From: Holophagales bacterium
Lineage (GTDB): Bacteria > Acidobacteriota > Thermoanaerobaculia > UBA5066
Assembly (NCBI GenBank): GCA_016719485.1
Contig: JADJZB010000006.1
Coordinates: 27,375 to 91,374 of the forward strand
Direction: 5' to 3'
Length of the DNA stretch: 64,000 nucleotides
The notes under the pieces were generated by a model. The model saw nothing but the letters and a program-made list of their open reading frames with translations. It was not told where the DNA came from and did not search any database. Every line of letters starts with the position of its first letter. Positions within the stretch are counted from its first letter, which is position 1. Position numbers and translations under genes: made by a program. This document shows, one piece after another, positions 22,348 through 35,545 of this stretch.

Positions 22348-22505
22348 GGTATCTATTTTCGTTGTCCCATGCTATCCGTAGATACCCGCGGAAGTGAAGT
22401 GTGCCAGCGTAAATCTATGGTATATGGCTAGTTGCGGCTGTCCGCAGACGGAGGTGCCGAATGGGGTTCAAGGGGTCGCGAGTTCGAATCTCGCCGTCCC
22501 GACCA
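22348..22505 (+). repeat. tRNA-3'-end-like element, copy a (~158 nt; homologous to 26649..26805)
   Basis: ends with atggggttcaaggggtcgcgagttcgaatctcgccgtcccgacca = T-arm (gcgag/ttcgaat/ctcgc) + 7-nt acceptor 3' strand + ACCA; ~70% identical to copy b over ~110 nt upstream of the core. Confidence 0.6.
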
Positions 22506-22589
22506 TCTTTAAATCACTCACAGGAAATGGTTTACAGGTGTCCACCGATGCTCCGTTCGGTGCTGCTGGTATCCGGTGGCCGGATCAGG

Positions 22590-22893: not shown

Positions 22894-23304
22894 CTACCTC
22901 CAGTTGCGGTCCATGAGCCCGTGGTCCTCTACGTCGTCACGCGCGCCCTCGACGCCAGTACCGATAGGCTTCGATCCACTCGGTGCCGCTGGGCGGGCGG
23001 GCAGGCAGGGGCAGGTCGAGGATGGGGATTCTCTGCCGGGGGGGCCCGCGACACAGAGGGCAACGATGCCGTCGTCCGTCAACTCCACTCGCTTGACCGA
23101 AACCGCCACGCCAAGAATTTCCGTCGAGAAGGGGAGGGCGAGGTGATCCTCTATCAGCGTGTAGAGCCCCGACTGCTGCTCGTCGTCGTTGTACGTATCG
23201 ACGGTCGCCTCGGCGACCAGCGCATCGAGCTGTGGGCCTGAGAGACGCACCCGTCGCCCGGCGGGGCGAGCGGGGGCCGGCCGGACCGTCTGGCGACTCT
23301 TCAT
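22894..23304 (-). CDS. hypothetical small protein translationally coupled to the primase-helicase gene
   Basis: ATG 23304 overlaps the upstream stop (ATGA); LSGPQLDALVAEATVDTYNDDEQQSGLYTLIEDHLALPFSTEILGVAVSVKRVELTDDGIVALCV reads as genuine protein; C-terminus crosses a C7 homopolymer so the end is uncertain; antisense ORF 22798..23241 rejected. Confidence 0.4.
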   Translation of the reverse strand: MKSRQTVRPAPARPAGRRVRLSGPQLDALVAEATVDTYNDDEQQSGLYTLIEDHLALPFSTEILGVAVSVKRVELTDDGIVALCVAGPPGRESPSSTCPCLPARPAAPSGSKPIGTGVEGARDDVEDHGLMDRNWR

Positions 23305-25802
23305 GGCGAGGACCCGGCGGGAATCGCCCTGGCACCGATCTCTTCTTCTCCGCGTGTTGAGTCAGGGCCAGAGGTTTCGGCCACTCTGTACCCGATCTCT
23401 CGGTAGCCGCGCATCCTGCGTTCGAACATACGGGCGAGGACCGGAACCTGGCGGTCGACGTAGTCGACGATGCGGGCTTCAGTCTTCCCCGGGAGCGGGC
23501 GGTGGAGCCGACCAGCGTACTGGACGAGCGTGCCCCTCCAGGAAATCGGCATGGCGAGGAACAGCGTGTCGAGCCGCGCGTCGTCGAAGCCTTCGCCGAC
23601 GTAACGGCCGGTCGCCATGAGGAGACGCGGTTCATCCGGCGGAATGGCGCGAAGCCTTGCCATCGACTCTCGCCGTTGCTTTGCCCCGGTTCCACCGCGG
23701 AGTACGACGACGTGCGGGCAGGCCGCGGCAAGGCGGGCGGCGAGAAGGTCCAGATGATCTCGGCGTTCCGTGAGGACGAGTGGTGTGCGTCCCTCGCCGA
23801 GCGCGAGCGTCACGTCGCGAACGATGGCGTCGTTTCTCGCTTCGTCCCGGGCCAGCGCACCGTAGAGGCTCTGGATGGAAGGATCGGTGTCCTGTGCGGA
23901 AGAAGTGAACGACGTTTCGCGAACGACCAGGGTCTTCGTCAGTGAGTCCGCCGACTCAGCCGGCTTGCGGCCCACGTCGAACCGGACGGGCCCGATCTGC
24001 ATGTGGAGGATCGGCTGGTGGCCGTCCCGACGCTTGGCCGTGGCCGTCAGCCCCACGACGAACTTCGCCCGGATTCCCGAGAGCACTCGTTCGAACGAGA
24101 CGGCCGGGATGTGGTGACACTCGTCCACGATGACGTGGCCGTAGCCGCCGACGATCTCGTCGATCTCGTCGCCCCGGACGAGGCTCTGGATCATGGCGAC
24201 GTCCAGGTGCCCGTTCGGCTTTCGGACGCCCCCTCCGACTCGACCGATCTCTCTCGGATCGACGCCGAGGTGCAGGGACAGCTGCTCCACCCACTGGTCC
24301 AGGAGCGGCTGGCGGTGGACGAGTACGACCGCCGAGCGGGCCCGGGCGGCGATCAGGTACGAGCCGACGACCGTCTTCCCCGATCCCGGCGGGGCCACGA
24401 AGACTCCGGTGTCGTGGGCCAGCAGCATCTGGGCTGCCTCCTCCTGCCGGGGAGTGAGGCTGCTGGCGAACGACACGTCGAGCATCGGCCCTTGGTGGCG
24501 CTCGTCCTCGAGGTCCAGCCTCACGGCGTGCCCGCCGAGAAGGGGGCGGAGGTCATCGAGGCAGCCTCTCGGCAGCGAGACGTGGCGAGGGTGATCCTCC
24601 GCACAGCTGATCACACGAGGCGTGAGTGCCGTCGAGAGGCGCAGTCCCTGCTTCTTGAAGAACTCCGGATTCTGGAAAGCGGCAAGACGCTTGATCTGGT
24701 TGAGCAGCGGGGAGGGGAGCCCCTCCTTCGCGACGAAGAGCCGGTTTGCGAGGACGGCGCGAACTTCAGTCGGGAGCGGTCCGAGGAGAAGGCGAGCGGT
24801 CGATCGCCGGGACGGCGTCTGGCGCCACGGCCGAGCGGCATCCTCATCCTCCCCGTCCTCGGTGGTCCGGACTCCGACGACCAGCCCTTTCCTCGCGGCC
24901 TCCGAGGCAATCGTCTCCACGTAGTCCCGGCTCATCCGATTGACCCCGAGGAGGTATGCCCACTGGTCCGGGTGGGGCTCGAGGTTCGCGTCGAGAAAGA
25001 CTGTGTTTCCCTGAGTGCGGGGATGGCGCTGGAGCGGAAGGGCGATCAGGTTGCCGAATCCGCCCCGGGGCATCGTGTCCTGGCTCGGGAAGAGGCGGTC
25101 GTACGACGCCATGCTCAGCTCGTGCCTGCGGGACATCGTCTCGGTGATCAGGAACGAGGCCATCCGCCGGGCTGCGGAGGCGGGGACGGGCGCAGAGAAG
25201 AAGAGCCAGGCATGGGCCCCGTTGCCGGACCGCGACCGTTCGACGGCAATCGGAACTCCCAGCTCTCCGCACGTGGCGGCGAAGGCCGAAACATCGGCAG
25301 CCCATTCGGCCTCGTCGAAATCGGCGGCGACAAACCAGCAGGTCTCGTCGGCGAGCAGGGGATAGCAGCCGATCACGTGACGACCCTGGAGGTGATCGAG
25401 GAGCACCTGGTCGGACATCGGGAGAAAGGCCTGGCTCGGGCAGTCGCCACAACGGACGCGCGGCTTCTCGCAGACTCCTCGCACCCAGTCGTTCCGGCAA
25501 GTTGGGGAGTACCCCTTCTTGCCCGTCTTCGGGCTGACCCAGAGCTTGGGGAACACGTCCTCCCGGCCACGGAAGAGACTCCGGAAGAGGCCAACCTTCT
25601 CTTGCGCGTTCAGCCGACCGGCGGGAGCCGGCGTCGCGACGATGGTGCGGCCTTCGCTGTCATCCTCTGCGCGAAGGGCGTTCCGGAGGTCCTCGACTTG
25701 CTTCTCGAGTGCGTCCCGGCGTCTGCCGAGGTCGGCGATCTCCGCTTCTGCGGCCTCGATGGCAATGGTGAGAGCTGCCCGTCGGTGACCGCGGGCGTTC
25801 AT
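23301..25802 (-). CDS. archaeo-eukaryotic primase-polymerase (Prim-Pol) domain fused to SF2 DExH helicase
   Basis: real start MNARGHRRAAL at 25802 overlapping upstream stop; N-terminal Cys cluster CRNDWVRGVCEKPRVRCGDC, AEP motifs VAADFDEAE and RSRSGNGAHAWLFF; helicase Walker A APPGSGKT, DECH box VIVDECHH, TAT GLTATAKRRDG, motif VI VQYAGRLHR. Confidence 0.75.
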   Translation of the reverse strand: MNARGHRRAALTIAIEAAEAEIADLGRRRDALEKQVEDLRNALRAEDDSEGRTIVATPAPAGRLNAQEKVGLFRSLFRGREDVFPKLWVSPKTGKKGYSPTCRNDWVRGVCEKPRVRCGDCPSQAFLPMSDQVLLDHLQGRHVIGCYPLLADETCWFVAADFDEAEWAADVSAFAATCGELGVPIAVERSRSGNGAHAWLFFSAPVPASAARRMASFLITETMSRRHELSMASYDRLFPSQDTMPRGGFGNLIALPLQRHPRTQGNTVFLDANLEPHPDQWAYLLGVNRMSRDYVETIASEAARKGLVVGVRTTEDGEDEDAARPWRQTPSRRSTARLLLGPLPTEVRAVLANRLFVAKEGLPSPLLNQIKRLAAFQNPEFFKKQGLRLSTALTPRVISCAEDHPRHVSLPRGCLDDLRPLLGGHAVRLDLEDERHQGPMLDVSFASSLTPRQEEAAQMLLAHDTGVFVAPPGSGKTVVGSYLIAARARSAVVLVHRQPLLDQWVEQLSLHLGVDPREIGRVGGGVRKPNGHLDVAMIQSLVRGDEIDEIVGGYGHVIVDECHHIPAVSFERVLSGIRAKFVVGLTATAKRRDGHQPILHMQIGPVRFDVGRKPAESADSLTKTLVVRETSFTSSAQDTDPSIQSLYGALARDEARNDAIVRDVTLALGEGRTPLVLTERRDHLDLLAARLAAACPHVVVLRGGTGAKQRRESMARLRAIPPDEPRLLMATGRYVGEGFDDARLDTLFLAMPISWRGTLVQYAGRLHRPLPGKTEARIVDYVDRQVPVLARMFERRMRGYREIGYRVAETSGPDSTRGEEEIGARAIPAGSSP

Positions 25803-26293
25803 CCGGCGACGTCTTCTCCCGCCAGTGAGAGGACGCGTTTTCGAATGTCGGGCGACATCCACATCCCGGAGGCAGCGAGAAGGTCCACGAGCGGAGCTAC
25901 GGAAGGGACGAGGCGAGCCTTCTTGGCCTCGAGCAGGACACGGAGGGTGCCCCAGGTGGTCAGGCCGGCGGCGCGGGCCGTCCGCCGCGCGAGCGCATCG
26001 TCGAGAAGGAGGATTCGCTGAGGGTTTTCGAGGGCGAGCGCCATCGCGGCGAGCTCTCCGGCTCCGAGATCGAGAGTCAGCCACTCGGAGGGGGTCGATT
26101 TCGGGTCGACGGTCTCCAGCCAGGCCAGGTTGTCCGTGTCTGGCACCTCGAACCCGAGTGCCCGCCCTTCGCCGAGCTCCCTCAGGACCGCCGACGGAAC
26201 CCAGACCGACCCGAAGAGCTGGTCAAGCCAGCCGAGAGCTCCGATCCGACCCAGGTAGAGAAGGGGAGAGGTGTTAGTGATCGAGCCTGGCAT
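25799..26293 (-). CDS. DUF3368-type PIN-like nuclease domain protein (putative toxin)
   Basis: MPGSITNTSPLLYLGRIGALGWLDQLFGSVWVPSAVLRELG pattern typical of DUF3368; overlaps upstream ORF by 20 nt and the downstream primase-helicase by ATGA. Confidence 0.55.
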   Translation of the reverse strand: MPGSITNTSPLLYLGRIGALGWLDQLFGSVWVPSAVLRELGEGRALGFEVPDTDNLAWLETVDPKSTPSEWLTLDLGAGELAAMALALENPQRILLLDDALARRTARAAGLTTWGTLRVLLEAKKARLVPSVAPLVDLLAASGMWMSPDIRKRVLSLAGEDVAG

Positions 26294-26534
26294 CGCCTTC
26301 GAGCTCGGTAAGCTCGGCTTCCAGCGGGAACGTCTTGTAGCGCTTCAGCTCGTAGAGGAACTCGACCCGGCCCATTCCAGCGAGCTCTGCCGCTCGGCCC
26401 GAGGAGAGCCTGCCCAGTTCATAGAGCTTGACCGCCGCGAGGACCTGCAGCTCCCTCGCGAAAGACACCTCGTCGGTCTTCTCGGATAGAAGGACCTTTT
26501 CCGGAACCGCGACAACTACCGACCGTGACGCCAT
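26274..26534 (-). CDS. UPF0175-family antitoxin-like protein
   Basis: 86 aa, SFARELQVLAAVKLYELGRLSSGRAAELAGMGRVEFLYELKRY typical of UPF0175 partners of DUF3368. Confidence 0.5.
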   Translation of the reverse strand: MASRSVVVAVPEKVLLSEKTDEVSFARELQVLAAVKLYELGRLSSGRAAELAGMGRVEFLYELKRYKTFPLEAELTELEGDARLDH

Positions 26535-26648
26535 CTCTTTGGACTCCCATGGCGATTGTCTCTCAAGAGCGCTGCCCGATCCTGTCGGATCCTTCCCGCG
26601 GGGGGCCGAACGCAGGTTTCAGAAGCGTCGTTCATTGAGAGCCTCAAG

Positions 26649-26805
26649 GTATCTACTTTCGTTGTCCGATGCCGTCTGCGGATAGTCCGGGCGGCATCTC
26701 ACCCAAGCGTAAATTCATGATATATGGCCAGTTACAGCTGTCAGTGGACGGAGGTGTCGCATGGGGTTCAAGGGGTCGCGAGTTCGAATCTCGCCGTCCC
26801 GACCA
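26649..26805 (+). ncRNA. tRNA-3'-end-like structured RNA element, copy b (followed by intrinsic terminator)
   Basis: same 45-nt T-arm/acceptor/ACCA core as copy a plus ~110 nt of homologous upstream sequence; followed by gccgccggg-aa-cggcggc + TTTTT; canonical 5' acceptor strand not found by eye. Confidence 0.45.
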
Positions 26806-26825
26806 TTGATTCCAAAGGATTTAGA

Positions 26826-28093: not shown

Positions 28094-28452
28094 GGAGGGA
28101 GTGTATTCGTGATTCGCGAAACGCGAAAGGGCGAGAACTCGAACCGGTTCTATTGGCCCGTCGCGAGGCCGCGTCTCGCAGGAACCCGATGCGATCCTCA
28201 CGACCCTCGCCGCCAGTGTCGATACGCCTCAATCCACACCGCCCCGCCGGGAGGAAGATCGGGGAGACTCGGTGAGCCTTGTGTACGAAACGTCGGGGAT
28301 CGCAGGCGGAAGTCAACAGTTTGTTCTTCGCCGGGAACCACCCGAGAACGAACGGCGAATCGGAGGTGCTGCGAGGCGAGGAGGTGTCCACACTACTGTC
28401 CAAAACGGCCGGACCCATCGGGCTCCCGGCGTCGAAAGCGCTCCTTTTCCCC

Positions 28453-28497
28453 ATGGGGTTCAAGGGGTCGCGGGTTCGAATCTCGCCGTCCCGACCA
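28453..28497 (+). repeat. tRNA-3'-end-like core, copy c (one substitution: gcggg instead of gcgag in T-stem)
   Basis: atggggttcaaggggtcgcgggttcgaatctcgccgtcccgacca; no upstream homology to copies a/b. Confidence 0.55.
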
Positions 28498-28608: not shown

Positions 28609-28953
28609 TCAGTCGAGGGAGTCGCGAAGCCGACGAAGTCGCGACGCGAGAACGGGCAGGTCGCTGACGACGATCATCCAGACGAGCTCGAGGTCCACCG
28701 CGAAGTACCCGTGGACGACCCGGTTCCTGAGGCCGACGACCCGCGGCCATTCCAGGTCCGGTGTGCTTGCCCTGAACTCATCCGGCACGTGAGCGGCTGC
28801 TTCTCCGAGAATCTCGAGGTTCCTCACGACGGCGTCGGAGGTCTTCTCGTCGGCGAGGAATGCGGGCTGGTCCATTCTCGCGACATACCGCTCGATCCGC
28901 TCCGTCGCCTCGAGCATGTCGTCGAGCAGGAGGCGGACGGAGCGTCTAGACAT
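28609..28953 (-). CDS. hepT: HepT-like (DUF86/HEPN) RNase toxin
   Basis: HEPN Rx4-6H-type motif region RNRVVHGYF, DUF86 pattern VRNLEILGEAA; overlaps mntA by 8 nt. Confidence 0.65.
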   Translation of the reverse strand: MSRRSVRLLLDDMLEATERIERYVARMDQPAFLADEKTSDAVVRNLEILGEAAAHVPDEFRASTPDLEWPRVVGLRNRVVHGYFAVDLELVWMIVVSDLPVLASRLRRLRDSLD

Positions 28954-29239
28954 GAAGAGCTTCGAGCCGGATAGCGTCCATGTGACGTGGACGCAGCGCC
29001 CGCGTTGAGATGAGGTCGACCGGTCGGCCGAGGGCCTCTTCGAGCTTGTCGGCGAGCGTGACGAAATCGAGTCCGATCGCGGGATCTACTTCGACGAGGA
29101 TGTCGATGTCGCTTCGGTCGGTCTCGTCGCCCCGCGCGAACGAGCCGAAGAGGGCCAGGTCGCGCACGCCGAAGCGACGTCCGAGGTCGGGCTTCATTGC
29201 CCGGAGGGTCGAGATGATCTCCTCGCGGGATCGAACCAT
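28946..29239 (-). CDS. mntA: MntA-type minimal nucleotidyltransferase antitoxin
   Basis: LALFGSFARGDETDRSDIDILVEV (GSxxRGxxxxxSDxD) nucleotidyltransferase motif; 97 aa. Confidence 0.65.
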   Translation of the reverse strand: MVRSREEIISTLRAMKPDLGRRFGVRDLALFGSFARGDETDRSDIDILVEVDPAIGLDFVTLADKLEEALGRPVDLISTRALRPRHMDAIRLEALHV

Positions 29240-29425: not shown

Positions 29426-30343
29426 TCAGCCGAGGAGCAGCCGGACGAGGTGGTAGTAGACGGGCGCCGACAGGAGGAGCGAGTCGACCCGGTCGAGCAT
29501 CCCGCCGTGCCCGGGCAGGAGCGCGCTCCAGTCCTTGAGGCCCAGGTCTCTCTTCACGGACGAGAGGAGGAGGCCGCCCGCAACCCCGAGGAGGTAGACC
29601 ACCAGTGCGAGCGCCGCACCCTGGCGCCAGGTGAAGGGAGTCGAGCCGTGGAGCAGCACGCCGAGGCCGACGGCGAAGAGAAGCCCTCCTGCGAAACCTT
29701 CCCACGTCTTGGACGGAGAGCGGGCGGAGAGCGGGTGCCGGCCCAGGAGGCGGCCGGAGACGTACTGGGCCACGTCGCTCGACTGGACCACAAGAAGCAG
29801 GAAGCCGGCGAGGAGCGGGCCCGAGGCGGGAGCGGCCTGCGGCCGGAGGTACCAGAGCGCGGCGACGTGGGGAAGGCCCCAGAGAGTGCCCAGCAGCGCG
29901 AGGTGAAAGTGCAAAGCGCGCCGTCTCGCGTCGCCCGGCGGCGAGGATGCCCACGCCGCCAGGACGAGGCCGAGGCCGGCGAGTCCGATGACCGGCGAGA
30001 CGAGCCAGTAGCCGGAATACGGCACGAGCGCGAACAAGAGAGGCAGTGCCCCGTAGAAAAGGACGGACATCGAGGTGTAATCCCGGACACTCGAGATTCC
30101 CCGCCTCGAGAGGAGTTCCCGGAGACCTTGCGCGGCAACCACGGCGAAAAGGAAGAGGGCGCCGGGCGGTCCCGCGAAGTAGGCCGCAGCGAGGACGCCG
30201 AGGATCCAGGCCCAGCCGACGGCCCGGTCCACGAGGTTGCGGCCCGTGGCGTTCCCGGGCCCGAGCCGTCGGCGGATCAGGAGCACGACGGCGGTGCCGA
30301 GCGCCAGCGCGCCGGCGACCCACGTCCAGAGGCGCCAGACCTC
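29426..30343 (-). CDS. cdsA: phosphatidate cytidylyltransferase (CDP-diacylglycerol synthase)
   Basis: C-terminal signature KTWEGFAGG...GHGGMLDRVDS; 8-9 TM; start uncertain (no ATG/GTG near first TM; may use CTG or overlap plsC-like stop at 30346). Confidence 0.65.
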   Translation of the reverse strand, partial: EVWRLWTWVAGALALGTAVVLLIRRRLGPGNATGRNLVDRAVGWAWILGVLAAAYFAGPPGALFLFAVVAAQGLRELLSRRGISSVRDYTSMSVLFYGALPLLFALVPYSGYWLVSPVIGLAGLGLVLAAWASSPPGDARRRALHFHLALLGTLWGLPHVAALWYLRPQAAPASGPLLAGFLLLVVQSSDVAQYVSGRLLGRHPLSARSPSKTWEGFAGGLLFAVGLGVLLHGSTPFTWRQGAALALVVYLLGVAGGLLLSSVKRDLGLKDWSALLPGHGGMLDRVDSLLLSAPVYYHLVRLLLG

Positions 30344-30345
30344 GG

Positions 30346-30933
30346 TCAGGCCCGGCCTCCGGACGGGGACGAGGGTCGGAGGGCCAGGAGAGCTGCCCGG
30401 GCGCGTTCGAGGAAGTCCTCCTGGCTCTCTCCCGCAGCCGTCGCGAGGAGGGGACCGAAGAAGGCGCGGCAAAGAAGGGGTATCGGTAGGTACGCCCCTT
30501 TCGGCAGGCCCCGTCCCGGGTTCTCCAGCCAGACCGGCTGTATCTCGGCCCACGGGCACCGCCTGACGATGTGGTAGAGGCCGGGCCGGAACGGGAGAAG
30601 GCCGTTCCCGAGGTTCCGGGTCCCCTCCGGGAAGAGGAGCAGCGAGTCGCCGTTTCGAAGGGCGGCCTCCATGCGCTCCACCGCGTCCCCCGGCCCCCCG
30701 TTCGTCTGGCGTTCGACCAGGACCGCGTGGAAGACCCGTTTGGCGAGGTATCGCCGGACGGGGCCTGCCGTCCAGTAGTCGGCGGCGGCGACGGGTCGGA
30801 GCCTGGGTCTCTCCCGCGCTGGAATCGAGGACCAGACGAGCGCCGAGTCGGCGTGGCTGGCGTGGTTCACGTAGAAGACGCGCGGGCGGGCCGGGTCCCA
30901 GGGCACGCTCCAGGCGGTCTCCAGCGAGGTCAT
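30346..30933 (-). CDS. lysophospholipid (1-acyl-sn-glycerol-3-phosphate) acyltransferase family protein
   Basis: HX4D motif NHASHAD, FPEGTR block; ATG 30933 gives short N-terminus, gene may start further upstream on non-ATG codon. Confidence 0.6.
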   Translation of the reverse strand: MTSLETAWSVPWDPARPRVFYVNHASHADSALVWSSIPARERPRLRPVAAADYWTAGPVRRYLAKRVFHAVLVERQTNGGPGDAVERMEAALRNGDSLLLFPEGTRNLGNGLLPFRPGLYHIVRRCPWAEIQPVWLENPGRGLPKGAYLPIPLLCRAFFGPLLATAAGESQEDFLERARAALLALRPSSPSGGRA

Positions 30934-31025
30934 CGCCTTGCAGAACCCGGCCAGCGCGTGACCGCAGAGGCGGTCGAGGAGTGGGGGGCGGATCCCGGGA
31001 ATCGATCCTTCAGGAAAGGGAGGAC

Positions 31026-32306
31026 TCAAGAAGTCTCCCCGATCCCGAGGAGAGCGAGCTGGGAGGGCTTCGCGCGGGCCTGCGGCCGAGCCTCGCGGGC
31101 TCTCTCCCAGGCCGCAGCCGGCTCGATCCCGCTCCGCGCCAGGACCGCGCTGGCCACGAGGACGCTCCGCTGGAGGCCCATGGCGCAGTGGATCAGAACG
31201 GGTCCTGCCGACCAGGCTGCCGAGGCTGCCGCGACGGCCCGATCCCACTCGTCGGGCGACGGAGTGGCGAGGTCGAGGAGCGGGGCTCGGACCCGGACGA
31301 CTCCTTCGCCCGGACCGGGAGCCAGGATCTCCGGGGCGAGGTTCACCACGGTCTTCACGCCCAGTTCCGCCGCCTCGCGTGCGCGGGGTGCGCGTCCGAC
31401 CGAGAGCCCCGGAGCGAGCTCGGCGAAGGCGGGAAGGCCCCGCGTCTGCAGCCGTGCGGAAAGGGTTGCCGCGAGCCGCACGGGGAGCATGAGGGCGCGC
31501 CAGTGCCACGGCGCTTCCGTCGGGCCGAAGACCCCCGGCCCGAAGCCGAGGTATCCGGCCGCCACCAGCGTCAGGGCGAGCCCGGGCCAGGCCAGGAGCC
31601 ACCCGAAGCCTCCCTGCCACGCCGCGATGACGAAGGCGGCGAGGCCCCCGAGCAGGTAGGAGAGGCCGATGACGGACTCTCGCCGGTCGGGCCTCAGGAT
31701 CCGGAGCCGCAGCGGTATCGCGCAGAGGCAGACGACGCCGGCCGCGACGCCGGTCACCACGTCCACCGCGTGGTGCTGCCAGGTGGTGAGGACCGAGAGG
31801 CCGACGAGGAGACTCCAGCCGTGAACCGCCCACCGCCACGGTCCGTGGACCTTCCCCGCGTAGAAGGTCCAGAGAACGAGGAGCAGCGAGACGTGCAGCG
31901 ACGGGGCCTGGTTGAACGGCAGGTCGAAGGACGAGAGCAGGGCGAAGAGGGCCCCGGGCAGGCCGTCCGCGGCCGGCCTCTCGAAGCTGAAACGGAGCGG
32001 AAAGGCGAGAAAGCCGGCCAGGGAGACGACTGAGGCAAGGACGAGGCGCGCGACGTGGACGCGGAGCTCGCGCCGGGTCGCGCACAGGAGGACGGACGCG
32101 GCGTAGGCGAGGTCGATGCTCCAGTACGGGACGATGGTCCAGGGCAGGAACGGGATGTGGCGCTCCCAGGCCCAGACCACGATTCCCACGTCCGTCCGGG
32201 TCGCCGTGAAGGCGTTGGCCCAGCCGTAGGTCCCGAAGAAGAAGACCCCGAGGAACGCGAGCCACAGTGCGGCCTCTACCCGGGGGCGGCGTTCGGCTCC
32301 CGTCAT
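31026..32306 (-). CDS. PAP2 (type-2 phosphatidic acid phosphatase) membrane domain fused to dual-specificity/tyrosine-phosphatase-like domain
   Basis: PAP2 motifs KxxxxxxRP-like, PSLHVS, HHAVDV in multi-TM N-half; C-half VLIHCAMGLQRS = CX5R P-loop; ATG 32306 overlaps upstream stop (ATGA). Confidence 0.7.
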   Translation of the reverse strand: MTGAERRPRVEAALWLAFLGVFFFGTYGWANAFTATRTDVGIVVWAWERHIPFLPWTIVPYWSIDLAYAASVLLCATRRELRVHVARLVLASVVSLAGFLAFPLRFSFERPAADGLPGALFALLSSFDLPFNQAPSLHVSLLLVLWTFYAGKVHGPWRWAVHGWSLLVGLSVLTTWQHHAVDVVTGVAAGVVCLCAIPLRLRILRPDRRESVIGLSYLLGGLAAFVIAAWQGGFGWLLAWPGLALTLVAAGYLGFGPGVFGPTEAPWHWRALMLPVRLAATLSARLQTRGLPAFAELAPGLSVGRAPRAREAAELGVKTVVNLAPEILAPGPGEGVVRVRAPLLDLATPSPDEWDRAVAAASAAWSAGPVLIHCAMGLQRSVLVASAVLARSGIEPAAAWERAREARPQARAKPSQLALLGIGETS

Positions 32307-34075
32307 GCGGCGCGCCGGGCGAGGGAGACGGTGAAGAGGCCCGCCTCGTCGACCCGCTGGTCCGCCTTCTCGAAGCCGGCTTCCTCCACCAGCTGGTCCA
32401 TCTCCCGCTGCGAGCGGCAGCGCATCACCCACGGTGCGCCGCCCCGGTGGCTCGTCAGGAGGCGCGCGATCATCTCGAGCTGGGGATGCCACGGCTGGTT
32501 CGTGTAGACGAGCCACCCGCCTGGCGCCATCGCGGCGGCGAGGCCGGAGAGGCTCCGGCGCACCCCGTCGTTTTCGGGGAACAGCTCGAAGAGGCCCGAG
32601 ACGACGGCCACGTCGGGGCGCGGCCTCACGTCGGCGAGAGAGTCGGGGTCAAAAGCGTCGCCCTGCTCGAACCTCACGCGGCCGTCGAGCCCTCGTTCGC
32701 GGATCCGCGCGCTTCCTTCCCGGACGTTCTCGGGAAGCAGGTCCCGGAGGAGCGCCGTCGCCTCGGGCACGCTCTCGAGGACGTCCAGCAGGTATCGCCC
32801 GTGTCCCGCGGCCGGGTCGAGGAGGTGCGGCGCCCGGCCCGTGGCCGCCACCCGCTCGCACGCGAGGCGGATCAGCTCGCCGAGCTGGCGCCTCCTCACC
32901 CGGACGCCGCGCCACCCGGGAGCGTCGAGGTAGACGCGGTCCACGAGCCGCCCCACGCCGATCCGCCCGGCGGCCTCGTCACCGTAGACGTGGTCGAGGC
33001 TCGCGCCCGAGTCGAAGCCGGTCCGGCAGCCGAGGTCGATCCCGTGCGACAGGCGGCCCAGCGTCCGGAGCCCGACGCGCTGCGCGTTCCAGAGGAAGCC
33101 CATCGGGGAAAGCGACGGCAGGGGGCGCGACAGCCGGCGCCAGGTCTCGAAGGAGGGCCCCGACCGGTCCTCCGCGGTCCGGTCAGGGTCCTCGAGCGGC
33201 GCCTGGAAGATCCGGTCGAGGAAGCCCCGCAAAGGGGTCAGGGCACGGGAGCGTTCCTTCTCGCCCAGCGTGTCGTGAAAGAAGTCCCGCAGGACGATGC
33301 ATTCCTTCGTCGCCGCGCCGAGCCGCTCGAAGAAGCGGAGCTGCGGCGCGCGGCGCACGACCCAGTCCTTGCCGGAGACGAGGAGCAGCGTCGGGGTGCG
33401 GATCGCCTGGGCGTCTGCCACGAGCCGGTCGCCCGCCTCGAGGAGGCCGAGGAGGATGTCCCCCGAGATGACGCGGGAGACGAGCGGGTCCGTTTCGTAC
33501 GAGGCGACCCGCTCCGGGTCGTGCGTGAGGACGTTCCCTTTGACGTAGGACGTCACGGCGAAGTTGCCCCTGAGGCGCCGCAGGAGCGAGAGCCCCGGTC
33601 GTGCGAACGGGACGTAGAGCTTCACCGAGAAGGCCGGCGTCGCCAGGACGAGGCCGCGGATGCGGGGGGCGTAGTCGTGCACCCACGCGGCCGCGAGGAC
33701 GGCGCCGACGCTCTGGGCCACGAGGGCGACGTCCTCTCGCCCGTGCGCGTGCCGGGCGCAGAGGTGGTCGACGAAGGTCCCCACGTCGCGGATCGAGGTG
33801 CCGAAGCTCGGGCTGTGTCCCCGCTCGCCGGGCGACAGGCCGTGCCCGCGCGCGTCCCAGGCGTAGACGTCCACGCCGGGGAGCTCGAGCTCGTCCACGA
33901 GGTGCTGCAGGCGGCCCGAGTGCTCGTGACCGCGGTGAAGGAGCACGAGGGCGGGCCGGGCGGGCCAGCCCTCGGGGGCCGATCCGCGCGCGGGCCAGTG
34001 CCGGTAGACAAGCTCGACGCCGTCGTGGGTGGGAAAGGTCAGGAGCGCGGCGTCCCGCGTCACGGACCACCCCAC
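32303..34075 (-). CDS. bifunctional alpha/beta hydrolase (lysophospholipase-like) / class I SAM-dependent methyltransferase
   Basis: N-half HRGHEHSGR...AQSVGAVLAAAW (GxSxG nucleophile elbow) alpha/beta hydrolase; C-half LLDPAAGHGRYLLDV (motif I) ...VVSGLFELF methyltransferase fold. Confidence 0.75.
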   Translation of the reverse strand: MGWSVTRDAALLTFPTHDGVELVYRHWPARGSAPEGWPARPALVLLHRGHEHSGRLQHLVDELELPGVDVYAWDARGHGLSPGERGHSPSFGTSIRDVGTFVDHLCARHAHGREDVALVAQSVGAVLAAAWVHDYAPRIRGLVLATPAFSVKLYVPFARPGLSLLRRLRGNFAVTSYVKGNVLTHDPERVASYETDPLVSRVISGDILLGLLEAGDRLVADAQAIRTPTLLLVSGKDWVVRRAPQLRFFERLGAATKECIVLRDFFHDTLGEKERSRALTPLRGFLDRIFQAPLEDPDRTAEDRSGPSFETWRRLSRPLPSLSPMGFLWNAQRVGLRTLGRLSHGIDLGCRTGFDSGASLDHVYGDEAAGRIGVGRLVDRVYLDAPGWRGVRVRRRQLGELIRLACERVAATGRAPHLLDPAAGHGRYLLDVLESVPEATALLRDLLPENVREGSARIRERGLDGRVRFEQGDAFDPDSLADVRPRPDVAVVSGLFELFPENDGVRRSLSGLAAAMAPGGWLVYTNQPWHPQLEMIARLLTSHRGGAPWVMRCRSQREMDQLVEEAGFEKADQRVDEAGLFTVSLARRAA

Positions 34076-34202
34076 GGAGCAATGTCATGCATGAAAGCGA
34101 GGCATTGTAGCGTCCGATCGCCGGACGCCGCCGGCTTCCTTGACGGTCCCCCCTCGCCGCTCGAAAATCCGGCTGCTGCCCACGACACGAAAGGATGTCC
34201 TC

Positions 34203-34616
34203 ATGAGCTACACGGACCTCGTCCAGATGTACTTCGAGCGGTCCAACGGCCTGCAGTGGCTCTGGACGCTCTACGTCGTCATCGCCGGCGGCCTCCTGGC
34301 CTTCTCGTCGATGCGCAAGCAGCGGGACGTCGCCACCACGTCGCTCATCACCGTCCTGTTCTGCATCTTCGCGTACAAGAACCTCGGCGGCCTGAAGGAC
34401 ATCACGATGCAGCGGTTCGCGGTCCTCGACGCGTTGAAGGCCGTTGCCGCCGACTCCGGAGCGAGCGGCGCCGCGCGGCTCATCGAGCCCACCCTGGTTC
34501 CACCCCCCTGGGAAGAGGGGCGGAACACCCACGTCGTCAGCGACGTCCTCCTCGTCGCGGCCCTCTGGGCCATGGAGCTGCGGAGGAAGAGGCAGTCCAT
34601 GGAGACCTCGTCGTAG
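34203..34616 (+). CDS. hypothetical small membrane protein
   Basis: MSYTDLVQMYFERSNGLQWLWTLYVVIAGGLLAFSSM... two predicted TM helices; divergent from lipid operon. Confidence 0.35.
   Translation: MSYTDLVQMYFERSNGLQWLWTLYVVIAGGLLAFSSMRKQRDVATTSLITVLFCIFAYKNLGGLKDITMQRFAVLDALKAVAADSGASGAARLIEPTLVPPPWEEGRNTHVVSDVLLVAALWAMELRRKRQSMETSS

Positions 34617-34774: not shown

Positions 34775-35545
<771 letters not shown>

Follow-up and report, generated by a model that had tools for sequence, protein, structure and literature searches.

On the minus strand of a 64-kb stretch of Holophagales bacterium DNA (Acidobacteriota; contig JADJZB010000006.1, positions 27,375 to 91,374; the whole stretch is hereafter called the window), the listing of open reading frames (ORFs) contains four consecutive co-directional ORFs between 29426 and 34075, here called genes 1 to 4 in reading order. 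The initial annotation had described them as one lipid-related operon encoding a hydrolase-methyltransferase fusion, a fusion of a PAP2 membrane phosphatase with a second phosphatase, an acyltransferase and a CdsA enzyme; the ORFs are present as described, and Pfam searches and motifs matched the domain content. The four genes are almost certainly the ynb operon of Holophagales (Acidobacteriota), orthologous to that of E. coli K-12; the family also occurs in Pseudomonas, many Betaproteobacteria and further Acidobacteriota and is not peculiar to this genome. The family is known and the Holophagales member is new, its only distinctive trait being the loss of ynbA with selection kept on the remaining genes, a loss that had been overlooked although it is the sole feature setting this copy apart. 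The genes and features of the locus are the following.

32303..34063, minus strand: ynbC orthologue (gene 1), a fusion of an alpha/beta hydrolase (monoacylglycerol-lipase-like) and a class I S-adenosylmethionine (SAM) methyltransferase; from E. coli YnbC identity, Pfam and start homology
33254..33961, minus strand: hydrolase domain, YnbC residues 39-274; from Hydrolase_4 (PF12146), profile matches and the invariant triad
32312..33229, minus strand: methyltransferase domain, YnbC residues 283-588; from Methyltransf_20 (PF12147) and the model
31026..32306, minus strand: ynbD orthologue (gene 2), with a membrane PAP2-superfamily domain, a two-helix hairpin and a Cys-X5-Arg phosphatase domain
31707..32306, minus strand: six-helix domain resembling PAP2 and sphingomyelin synthase (SMS), YnbD residues 1-200
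31047..31439, minus strand: phosphatase domain of the dual-specificity phosphatase (DSP)/protein tyrosine phosphatase (PTP) type, YnbD residues ~290-420
31167-31190, minus strand: P-loop H-C374-AMGLQ-R380 of YnbD
30346..31029, minus strand: PlsC/LPLAT-type acyltransferase (gene 3), 227 aa, TTG start; from Pfam, motifs and N-terminal conservation
29426..30349, minus strand: ynbB-type CdsA paralogue (gene 4), 307 aa if CTG 30349 is the start; from CTP_transf_1 and the YnbB match
34059..34063, minus strand: ynbA deletion junction, single GTGAC; from alignment of the upstream region
34064..34202, minus strand: conserved upstream control region, common to ynbC and a divergent 137-aa ORF; from blocks conserved in the window and in the relatives L002, L090 and L086

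The probable start of gene 1 is GTG 34063 (VTRDAAL...), which lies four codons downstream of GTG 34075, the first codon of the listed 590-aa ORF, and is homologous to the VTRDA... start in L086, L090 and L002. The ynbC/ynbD junction reads as an ATGA overlap at 32306-32303, in agreement with the initial annotation. The 92-nt gap that had been placed before gene 3 depends on an ATG start at 30933 and reflects a start miscall: a TTG at 31029 overlaps the ynbD stop (TTGA), the 32 extra N-terminal codons (LSPPFPEGSIPGIRPPLLDRLCGHALAGFCKA) are kept in L002, L086 and L090, a further relative, L087, carries an ATG at the position matching this TTG, and gene callers assign 228 aa to the acyltransferase in two relatives. 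For gene 4, the probable start is CTG 30349 (CTGA overlap), which gives 307 aa; this first codon, overlapping the acyltransferase stop, is CTG in the window as in L002 and L090, L086 and L087 having GTG instead, and the N-terminus (xEVWRLWTWVAGALALGTA...) is conserved. A GTG at 30559 was rejected as the start of this gene, as it would overlap gene 3 by 200 nt. Given that all three junctions are 4-nt start/stop overlaps (ATGA, TTGA and CTGA), the usual sign of coupling, the four genes are predicted to form one translationally coupled unit.

Upstream of gene 1, the control region carries a conserved ACGCTACAAT block, with a -10-like hexamer at 34104-34109, and, directly before the start codon, the stretch GGGGTGG. 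A promoter and terminator consensus scan returned no usable minus-strand sites, its only hit being a plus-strand site at 34140-34168. We infer that the upstream block is a putative promoter, and the same region would drive ynbA in relatives.

Direct protein comparison gave 54% identity between gene 1 and E. coli YnbC over 577 of 590 aa, and 38% identity between gene 2 and E. coli YnbD over 422 aa, full length (E 2e-78). Relatives of gene 1 carry the NCBI name 'bifunctional alpha/beta hydrolase/class I SAM-dependent methyltransferase', one of them being named 'YnbC' by one source, and gene 2 is 100% identical to the NCBI protein of a Holophagales metagenome-assembled genome. Gene 4 matches CTP_transf_1 in full (E 2.5e-48), aligns with E. 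coli YnbB at 97 bits over 228 aa and with E. coli CdsA at 77 bits and 37% identity over the C-terminal 134 aa only, and reaches 82.6 bits against the NCBI CdsA equivalog, far under its 385-bit cut-off. From these comparisons, gene 4 is a predicted YnbB-type CdsA paralogue with a CdsA-like C-terminal half and a distinct N-terminal half; the earlier label 'CdsA' thus holds for the catalytic half, whereas score, synteny and match length assign the protein to the YnbB type.

These scores bear on whether genes 3 and 4 might be the plsC and cdsA genes of this genome, standing beside two accessory lipid-turnover enzymes, which we regard as very unlikely. Both belong to the PlsC and CdsA families, gene 3 matching Pfam Acyltransferase (PF01553, E 1.6e-16) with the motifs NHASHAD (HX4D) and FPEGTR (EGTR) and scoring under the PlsC and OlsA equivalog cut-offs. 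However, besides its low CdsA score and its longer match to YnbB, gene 4 lies in a conserved ynb synteny shared by more than 70 genomes that also have an ordinary cdsA, including E. coli, the YnbB of which is no substitute for CdsA (PMC6362211).

The initial annotation had called both fusions rare, but homology searches returned at least 7,500 full-length relatives of gene 1 at E <= 1e-20 and 2,302 matches of gene 2, and E. coli K-12 carries both. The YnbD family is nevertheless compact: at E <= 1e-30 and 50% identity, 1.84 billion representatives contain 362 clusters. A scan with a YnbC alignment, covering one genome per GTDB species, confirmed at least 587 loci, and the best match to the window among the GTDB loci listed has 61% identity. 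The check proposed at the outset, the co-occurrence of the two fusion genes across genomes, found them together almost everywhere, revealing a widespread conserved operon.

Gene architecture was typed in the best 80 of the at least 587 GTDB loci by tblastn with YnbA, YnbB, YnbC, YnbD, acyltransferase and small-ORF queries, using a letter code in which A, B, C and D are ynbA, ynbB, ynbC and ynbD, T is the acyltransferase and U is a membrane ORF of 143-147 aa. The majority order is ynbA-ynbC-ynbD-(small ORF)-acyltransferase-ynbB (63 of 80 loci), comprising A-C-D-U-T-B in 44 and A-C-D-T-B in 19; four further loci are A-B-T-C-D, with one A-B-T-T-C-D, and the remaining ones are partial clusters or truncated contigs. 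The six-gene order A-C-D-U-T-B also stands in the gene tables of Pseudomonas and Azoarcus olearius, the separately fetched E. coli locus (L001) is A-B-C-D, another Acidobacteriota contig reads C-D-A-B-T, and the Holophagales relatives L086 and L087 are A-C-D-T-B. Among the loci typed, C-D-T-B was found in the window and its close relative L002 only. Natural partial clusters occur elsewhere (L059, L007, L042, L067 and L081), namely C-D-U in Pseudomonas oryzagri, A-C-B in Inhella, A-C-T-B in Segnochrobactrum, and ynbC alone, so the loss of a single member is not unique to the window.

Two features of these loci are recorded as observations in their own right. The small ORF is hydrophobic, has no Pfam or NCBIfam match and lies between ynbD and the acyltransferase (L003 11071-11502 in Pseudomonas; L004 11115-11558 in Azoarcus); it was detected in 46 of the 80 typed loci as well as in L003 and L004, and neither the Holophagales nor the E. 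coli clusters have it. An AzoR/Flavodoxin_2-type flavin mononucleotide (FMN) reductase gene adjoins ynb in E. coli K-12 (L001 12256-12861) and Pseudomonas (L003 6171-6761), which could be coincidence or a conserved association.

In the window, tblastn with five YnbA queries, including a Holophagales one from the 85%-related relative, found no ynbA in the 64 kb. By contrast, L086 (YnbD identity 85%) and L087 (67%) carry a 200-202-aa ynbA directly upstream of ynbC, and all aligned genomes retain the divergent 137-aa ORF together with the intergenic control region and its ACGCTACAAT block. In the alignment of the upstream region, ynbA of L086 starts at ...ccGTGACCctctac and its ynbC at ...tcGTGACGcgggac, whereas the window junction reads ...ggtccGTGACGCGGGAC, with a single GTGAC and the stretch between two GTGAC motifs gone, so that ynbC now directly follows the ribosome-binding site and start context once used by ynbA. 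The alignment thus shows a clean deletion of ynbA between the two GTGAC motifs, and the loss is derived, given that the relatives L086 and L087 have the gene.

Loss of ynbA was found in three independent assemblies (the window, L002 and L090), two of which have the deletion end-points in common: L002 and L090 retain a 57-nt stub consisting of the first 11 ynbA codons (VTLYDLKPAFQ), a few bases and the ynbC start. Because all three share the CTG start of ynbB, the pattern suggests one ancestral deletion, with the stub later lost in the window lineage; two independent deletions are also possible, and pairwise dS does not resolve the branching. An assembly artefact was rejected, with three independent assemblies showing the loss and two of them the identical stub, as was removal of ynbA by the neighbouring island, which sits beyond the other end of the operon. 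The ynbB CTG (30347-30349), present exactly in the three ynbA-less assemblies, could itself be a shared derived marker or an expression-lowering device.

To follow selection on the remaining genes, ratios of nonsynonymous to synonymous substitution (dN/dS) were computed by the Nei-Gojobori method for the pairs among the three ynbA-less genomes and for L086 versus L087 as the ynbA-carrying pair. The ynbA-less pairs gave 0.12-0.20 for ynbC, 0.27-0.29 for ynbD, 0.23-0.27 for the acyltransferase and 0.17-0.20 for ynbB, and the ynbA-carrying pair gave 0.20-0.30 across all four genes. Given these ratios (0.12-0.29), with all four ORFs intact and the catalytic residues retained in the three ynbA-less assemblies, the four genes are still under purifying selection without an adjacent ynbA. 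The same data bear on the possibility that the pathway died with ynbA and that the four genes are becoming pseudogenes. Such decay would fit the position of ynbA as first gene in nearly all other clusters, the existence of other truncated clusters and the restriction of the ynbB CTG start to exactly the three ynbA-less assemblies, but it is highly unlikely in view of the intact ORFs and catalytic residues, of dN/dS values no higher than those between ynbA-carrying genomes, and of the placement of ynbC exactly behind the old ynbA start signals.

The YnbC orthologue matches Hydrolase_4 over residues 39-274 (E 7e-68) and Methyltransf_20 over residues 283-588 (E 3e-123) in Pfam. A YnbC family profile retrieved from the PDB solved bacterial and human monoacylglycerol lipases (E 4e-25 to 1e-18), and YnbC matches PldB weakly. 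S122 (in the elbow AQSVG), D237 and H267 align with the GHSLG serine, the aspartate and the histidine of 6qe2 and are invariant in the YnbC family alignment, as is the SAM motif I, D420-x-AAGHGRY. The methyltransferase domain has a mean column identity of 72-74% across phyla, and its model (predicted local distance difference test score, pLDDT, 85.8) folds as a class I methyltransferase, the nearest folds being the uncharacterised Bordetella protein 3ocj, followed by the small-molecule O-/C-methyltransferases RdmB, DnrK, MmcR and SgvM. The sequence profile against the PDB found no methyltransferase better than E 0.01. The modelled fold indicates a small or hydrophobic methyl acceptor and nothing more specific.

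The initial annotation had seen in the genes a rare and novel operon that could make or remodel a glycerophospholipid, methylated or decorated in some other way. Its domain content is as described, its methyltransferase is intact and very strongly conserved, and the literature found assigns the pathway no function; we nevertheless consider this proposal unlikely, because the operon is neither rare nor genome-specific, nothing points to a phospholipid head group as the methyl acceptor, and ynbA, the gene that would attach a head group, is absent here.

The YnbD orthologue (426 aa) matched Pfam PAP2 below threshold (E 0.016) and DSP-type families weakly (E 2e-5 to 2e-3), and a sequence profile of its N-terminal domain against the PDB gave weak LPP1/LPP2 matches over motif C3 (E 0.001-0.4). 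All 23 aligned YnbD homologues match PAP2 and PAP2_3 (best 1.7e-8), and 14 of them match PAP2_C. An AlphaFold model built from 60 sequences (pLDDT 90.2, predicted template modelling score 0.80) contains six membrane helices, a two-helix hairpin and an alpha/beta phosphatase domain. In the latter, C374-x5-R380 and the general-acid candidate D345, which lies upstream of the P-loop on the DSP fold, are invariant. In the membrane domain, the family conserves R110-P111, P135-S-L-H138 and H178-H179-x-x-D182, and the modelled six-helix core places a His-His-Asp triad at its predicted extracytoplasmic face.

PgpB-type phosphatases carry a tripartite motif of C1 KX6RP, C2 PSGH and C3 SRX5HX3D (PMC7413402, in part general knowledge). 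YnbD misses this pattern: the C1 lysine is missing with only R110-P111 present, C2 reads PSLH, and C3 retains S171, H178 and D182 with the arginine replaced by a near-invariant V172. The same simplification of the motif is seen in SMS-type enzymes, which act on phosphodiesters. In addition, fold comparison of the membrane domain gave the longest and best alignment with SMSr and Aur1, so that this half of YnbD looks, as far as the model goes, more like a head-group transferase of the sphingomyelin- or inositol phosphorylceramide (IPC)-synthase type than like a PgpB-type phosphatase. The earlier description of a 'PAP2 phosphatase' stands as to superfamily, matched by 23 of 23 homologues, but is not supported as to type, given the incomplete PgpB motif and the closer likeness to SMSr and Aur1. 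Topology was read from Arg/Lys counts in the loops of the model by the positive-inside rule, by which the N-terminus, loops 2-3, 4-5 and 6-7 and the phosphatase domain would be cytoplasmic and all PAP2-type motifs periplasmic.

YnbA, a CDP-alcohol phosphatidyltransferase present in the complete clusters, has its best NCBIfam matches, below cut-offs, in archaetidylinositol-phosphate (AIP) synthase (6e-21 and 2e-16) and phosphatidylinositol-phosphate (PIP) synthase (~1e-12). AIP and PIP synthases condense cytidine diphosphate-diacylglycerol (CDP-DAG) with a phosphorylated alcohol, after which a phosphatase is needed. Among the ynb proteins, only YnbB has tested activity in the literature found: it is a non-essential CdsA paralogue that synthesizes CDP-DAG in vitro without replacing CdsA for bulk phospholipids (PMC6362211, PMC7018664), sustains synthesis of the glycolipid MPIase (membrane protein integrase) under CdsA depletion, and is cold-induced (PMC6362211, PMC7018664, PMC11413397). 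The ynbA promoter is activated by BglJ-RcsB (PMC3950696), no function is ascribed to YnbD, and an E. coli strain without all four PAP2 genes is viable (PMC7413402). Our literature search found no paper assigning a function to YnbA, YnbC or YnbD and none on the whole cluster, consistent with the earlier statement that the pathway is not an established named route. As background, the E. coli operon is reportedly repressed by H-NS.

These studies raise the possibility of an MPIase-type route, in which YnbB would feed a sugar-pyrophosphate-DAG, as proposed for N-acetylglucosamine (GlcNAc)-PP-DAG in E. coli, the PAP2 domain of YnbD would act on the lipid pyrophosphate and YnbC would tailor the product. 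The sole experimental data on ynb genes tie YnbB to MPIase, as its overproduction raises MPIase and it restores MPIase, not phospholipids, under CdsA depletion (PMC6362211, PMC7018664, PMC11413397). PAP2 enzymes, moreover, commonly act on lipid pyrophosphates such as undecaprenyl pyrophosphate (C55-PP) and diacylglycerol pyrophosphate (DGPP), and YnbD retains the C1 Arg-Pro. However, knockout of ynbB alone leaves the MPIase level unchanged, leading the authors to call YnbB a backup (PMC6362211). The MPIase literature found implicates none of ynbA, ynbC and ynbD and describes MPIase in E. coli only, nothing showing it in Acidobacteriota, and the route offers no obvious role for the PIP-synthase-like YnbA or the lipase-methyltransferase, which makes it, in our judgement, improbable.

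All four enzymes encoded in the window look catalytically competent, as judged from the invariant YnbC triad and SAM motif, the YnbD motifs, the HX4D and EGTR motifs of the acyltransferase and the full CTP_transf_1 match of YnbB, and for the family we tentatively put forward, as the likeliest order of events, a chain running from acyltransferase and YnbB through YnbA and YnbD to YnbC. On the cytoplasmic face, the PlsC-like acyltransferase and YnbB would supply phosphatidic acid and CDP-DAG for a private branch. In complete clusters, YnbA would then join CDP-DAG with a phosphorylated alcohol into a phosphatidyl-alcohol-phosphate, the terminal phosphate of which would be stripped by the cytoplasmic Cys-X5-Arg domain of YnbD, as phosphatidylglycerophosphate (PGP) and PIP phosphatases do. 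The six-helix domain of YnbD would act on the periplasmic side of the inner membrane, transferring or cleaving the phospho-head group of a phospholipid and leaving diacylglycerol, and the lipase-like domain of YnbC may deacylate a lipid by-product or intermediate, with the fused methyltransferase methylating the hydrolase product. In this genome, the YnbA step might be supplied by another CDP-alcohol phosphatidyltransferase encoded elsewhere, or be bypassed, with YnbC and YnbD using ordinary phospholipids.

Taking these observations together, we speculate, at a probability of about 0.3, that ynb encodes an undescribed membrane-lipid or envelope-modification pathway, in which a private CDP-DAG branch would build a special phospholipid, the periplasm-facing SMS-like domain would pass its head group to another envelope molecule, and YnbC would recycle or methylate the leftover lipid, while the C-D-T-B module would work without YnbA. 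Several points weigh against the chain of steps set out above. The proposed lipid chain would be broken in this genome without ynbA, and the natural C-D-U, A-C-B and A-C-T-B clusters suggest that the parts may not be strictly interdependent. The YnbD topology follows from the positive-inside rule applied to a model, the fold neighbours of the YnbC methyltransferase say just 'small-molecule methyltransferase', and the non-canonical CTG start of ynbB could mean lower expression. A simple role as PGP phosphatase is disfavoured because E. coli YnbD complements neither C55-PP-phosphatase nor PGP-phosphatase mutants (PMC7413402), and the literature found offers no lipid product, substrate or phenotype.

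If the envelope-modification pathway is real, the Holophagales module of YnbC, YnbD, acyltransferase and YnbB would be able to use ordinary phospholipids as donors. The ynb genes count among the E. coli K-12 'y-genes' that lack a function, although their conservation extends from Enterobacteria and Pseudomonas to Acidobacteriota, and the SMS/IPC-like plus PTP-type architecture of YnbD, the PIP-synthase-like YnbA and a natural ynbA-less operon under selection provide concrete hypotheses for tractable hosts. As far as the window is concerned, the outcome is chiefly a correction: the genes are no rare invention but an ordinary member, by orthology, of an operon family that is known and unsolved.

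The surroundings of the operon hold further features. Beyond its ynbB end lie three direct copies of a 46-nt sequence (22460-22505, 26760-26805 and 28452-28497) that resembles a tmRNA or tRNA 3' end (...GGGGTCGCGAGTTCGAATCTCGCCGTCCCGACCA), and two of the copies, the first and second, extend to ~160 nt (22348-22506 and 26648-26806). Rfam tmRNA matches just the last 48 nt of the repeat (24 bits, below the gathering score), and in the whole window ARAGORN and Rfam at gathering threshold found no intact tRNA or tmRNA and no other RNA family, so that nothing of this type bears on the operon. The repeats are probably the attachment sites flanking two elements inserted in tandem. The first insert contains a large minus-strand ORF (23301-26084), a candidate gene for defence or conflict, in which a TOTE conflict-system archaeo-eukaryotic primase domain (PF22548, E 1e-95) precedes a ResIII/DEAD helicase. 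A small toxin-antitoxin-type gene pair, DUF3368 and UPF0175, lies at 25799-26534 (minus strand). A second such pair, a nucleotidyltransferase (NTP_transf_2) and a HepT-like RNase at 28609-29239 (minus strand), stands between the last repeat copy and ynbB. Given this intervening pair, the operon lies ~0.9 kb beyond the island and is not flush with it, contrary to the earlier placement immediately outside the island.

At the other end, the plus strand at 34203-34616 encodes a 137-aa predicted membrane protein without family assignment, divergent from ynbC, with which it may share the ynb control region. Its position beside the cluster is kept in all four Holophagales relatives, with or without ynbA, at dN/dS 0.13-0.44. 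Further out, an ORF at 34775-35518 (minus strand) aligns with the aldo/keto reductase profile over positions 143-290 only, has an unrelated N-terminus and is probably a truncated gene, and the G+C content falls from 0.73 to 0.67 at ~34 kb.

Among the closest known systems is ynbABCD of E. coli K-12 (b1408-b1411), which, like the window operon, comprises YnbC, YnbD and YnbB-type orthologues with the same fusions, co-directional and tightly packed. The gene order differs, being C-D-T-B in the window and A-B-C-D in E. coli, and the window cluster has a PlsC-like acyltransferase that E. coli ynb lacks, whereas ynbA is present in E. coli and not in the window. The Pseudomonas and Betaproteobacteria cluster shares with the window the order C-D-T-B and the acyltransferase; compared with it, the window operon is without ynbA and without the small membrane ORF between ynbD and the acyltransferase, and has overlapping junctions instead of short spacers.

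At the level of the proteins, the N-terminal domain of YnbC aligns over its whole length, with the triad in register, with solved bacterial and human monoacylglycerol lipases (Hydrolase_4, to which lysophospholipase L2 also belongs), but unlike monoacylglycerol lipases YnbC is fused to a PF12147 methyltransferase and has the elbow AQSVG in place of GxSxG. Gene 4 resembles the CdsA/MPIase pathway in its CdsA-like catalytic half and in the support of MPIase synthesis by E. coli YnbB (PMC6362211), and differs from it in an N-terminal half unrelated to CdsA (PMC7018664) and in the inability of YnbB to sustain bulk phospholipid synthesis. The mitochondrial PGP phosphatase PTPMT1 is among the top matches of the YnbD phosphatase domain, no closer than protein dual-specificity phosphatases (DUSPs) or archaeal PTPs. 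For the membrane domain, SMSr (8ijr/8ijq) and Aur1 (9ivc) share 12% sequence identity with YnbD, which, unlike them, retains the C1 Arg-Pro and continues into a hairpin and a Cys-X5-Arg phosphatase domain, its transferase activity being a prediction from the model.

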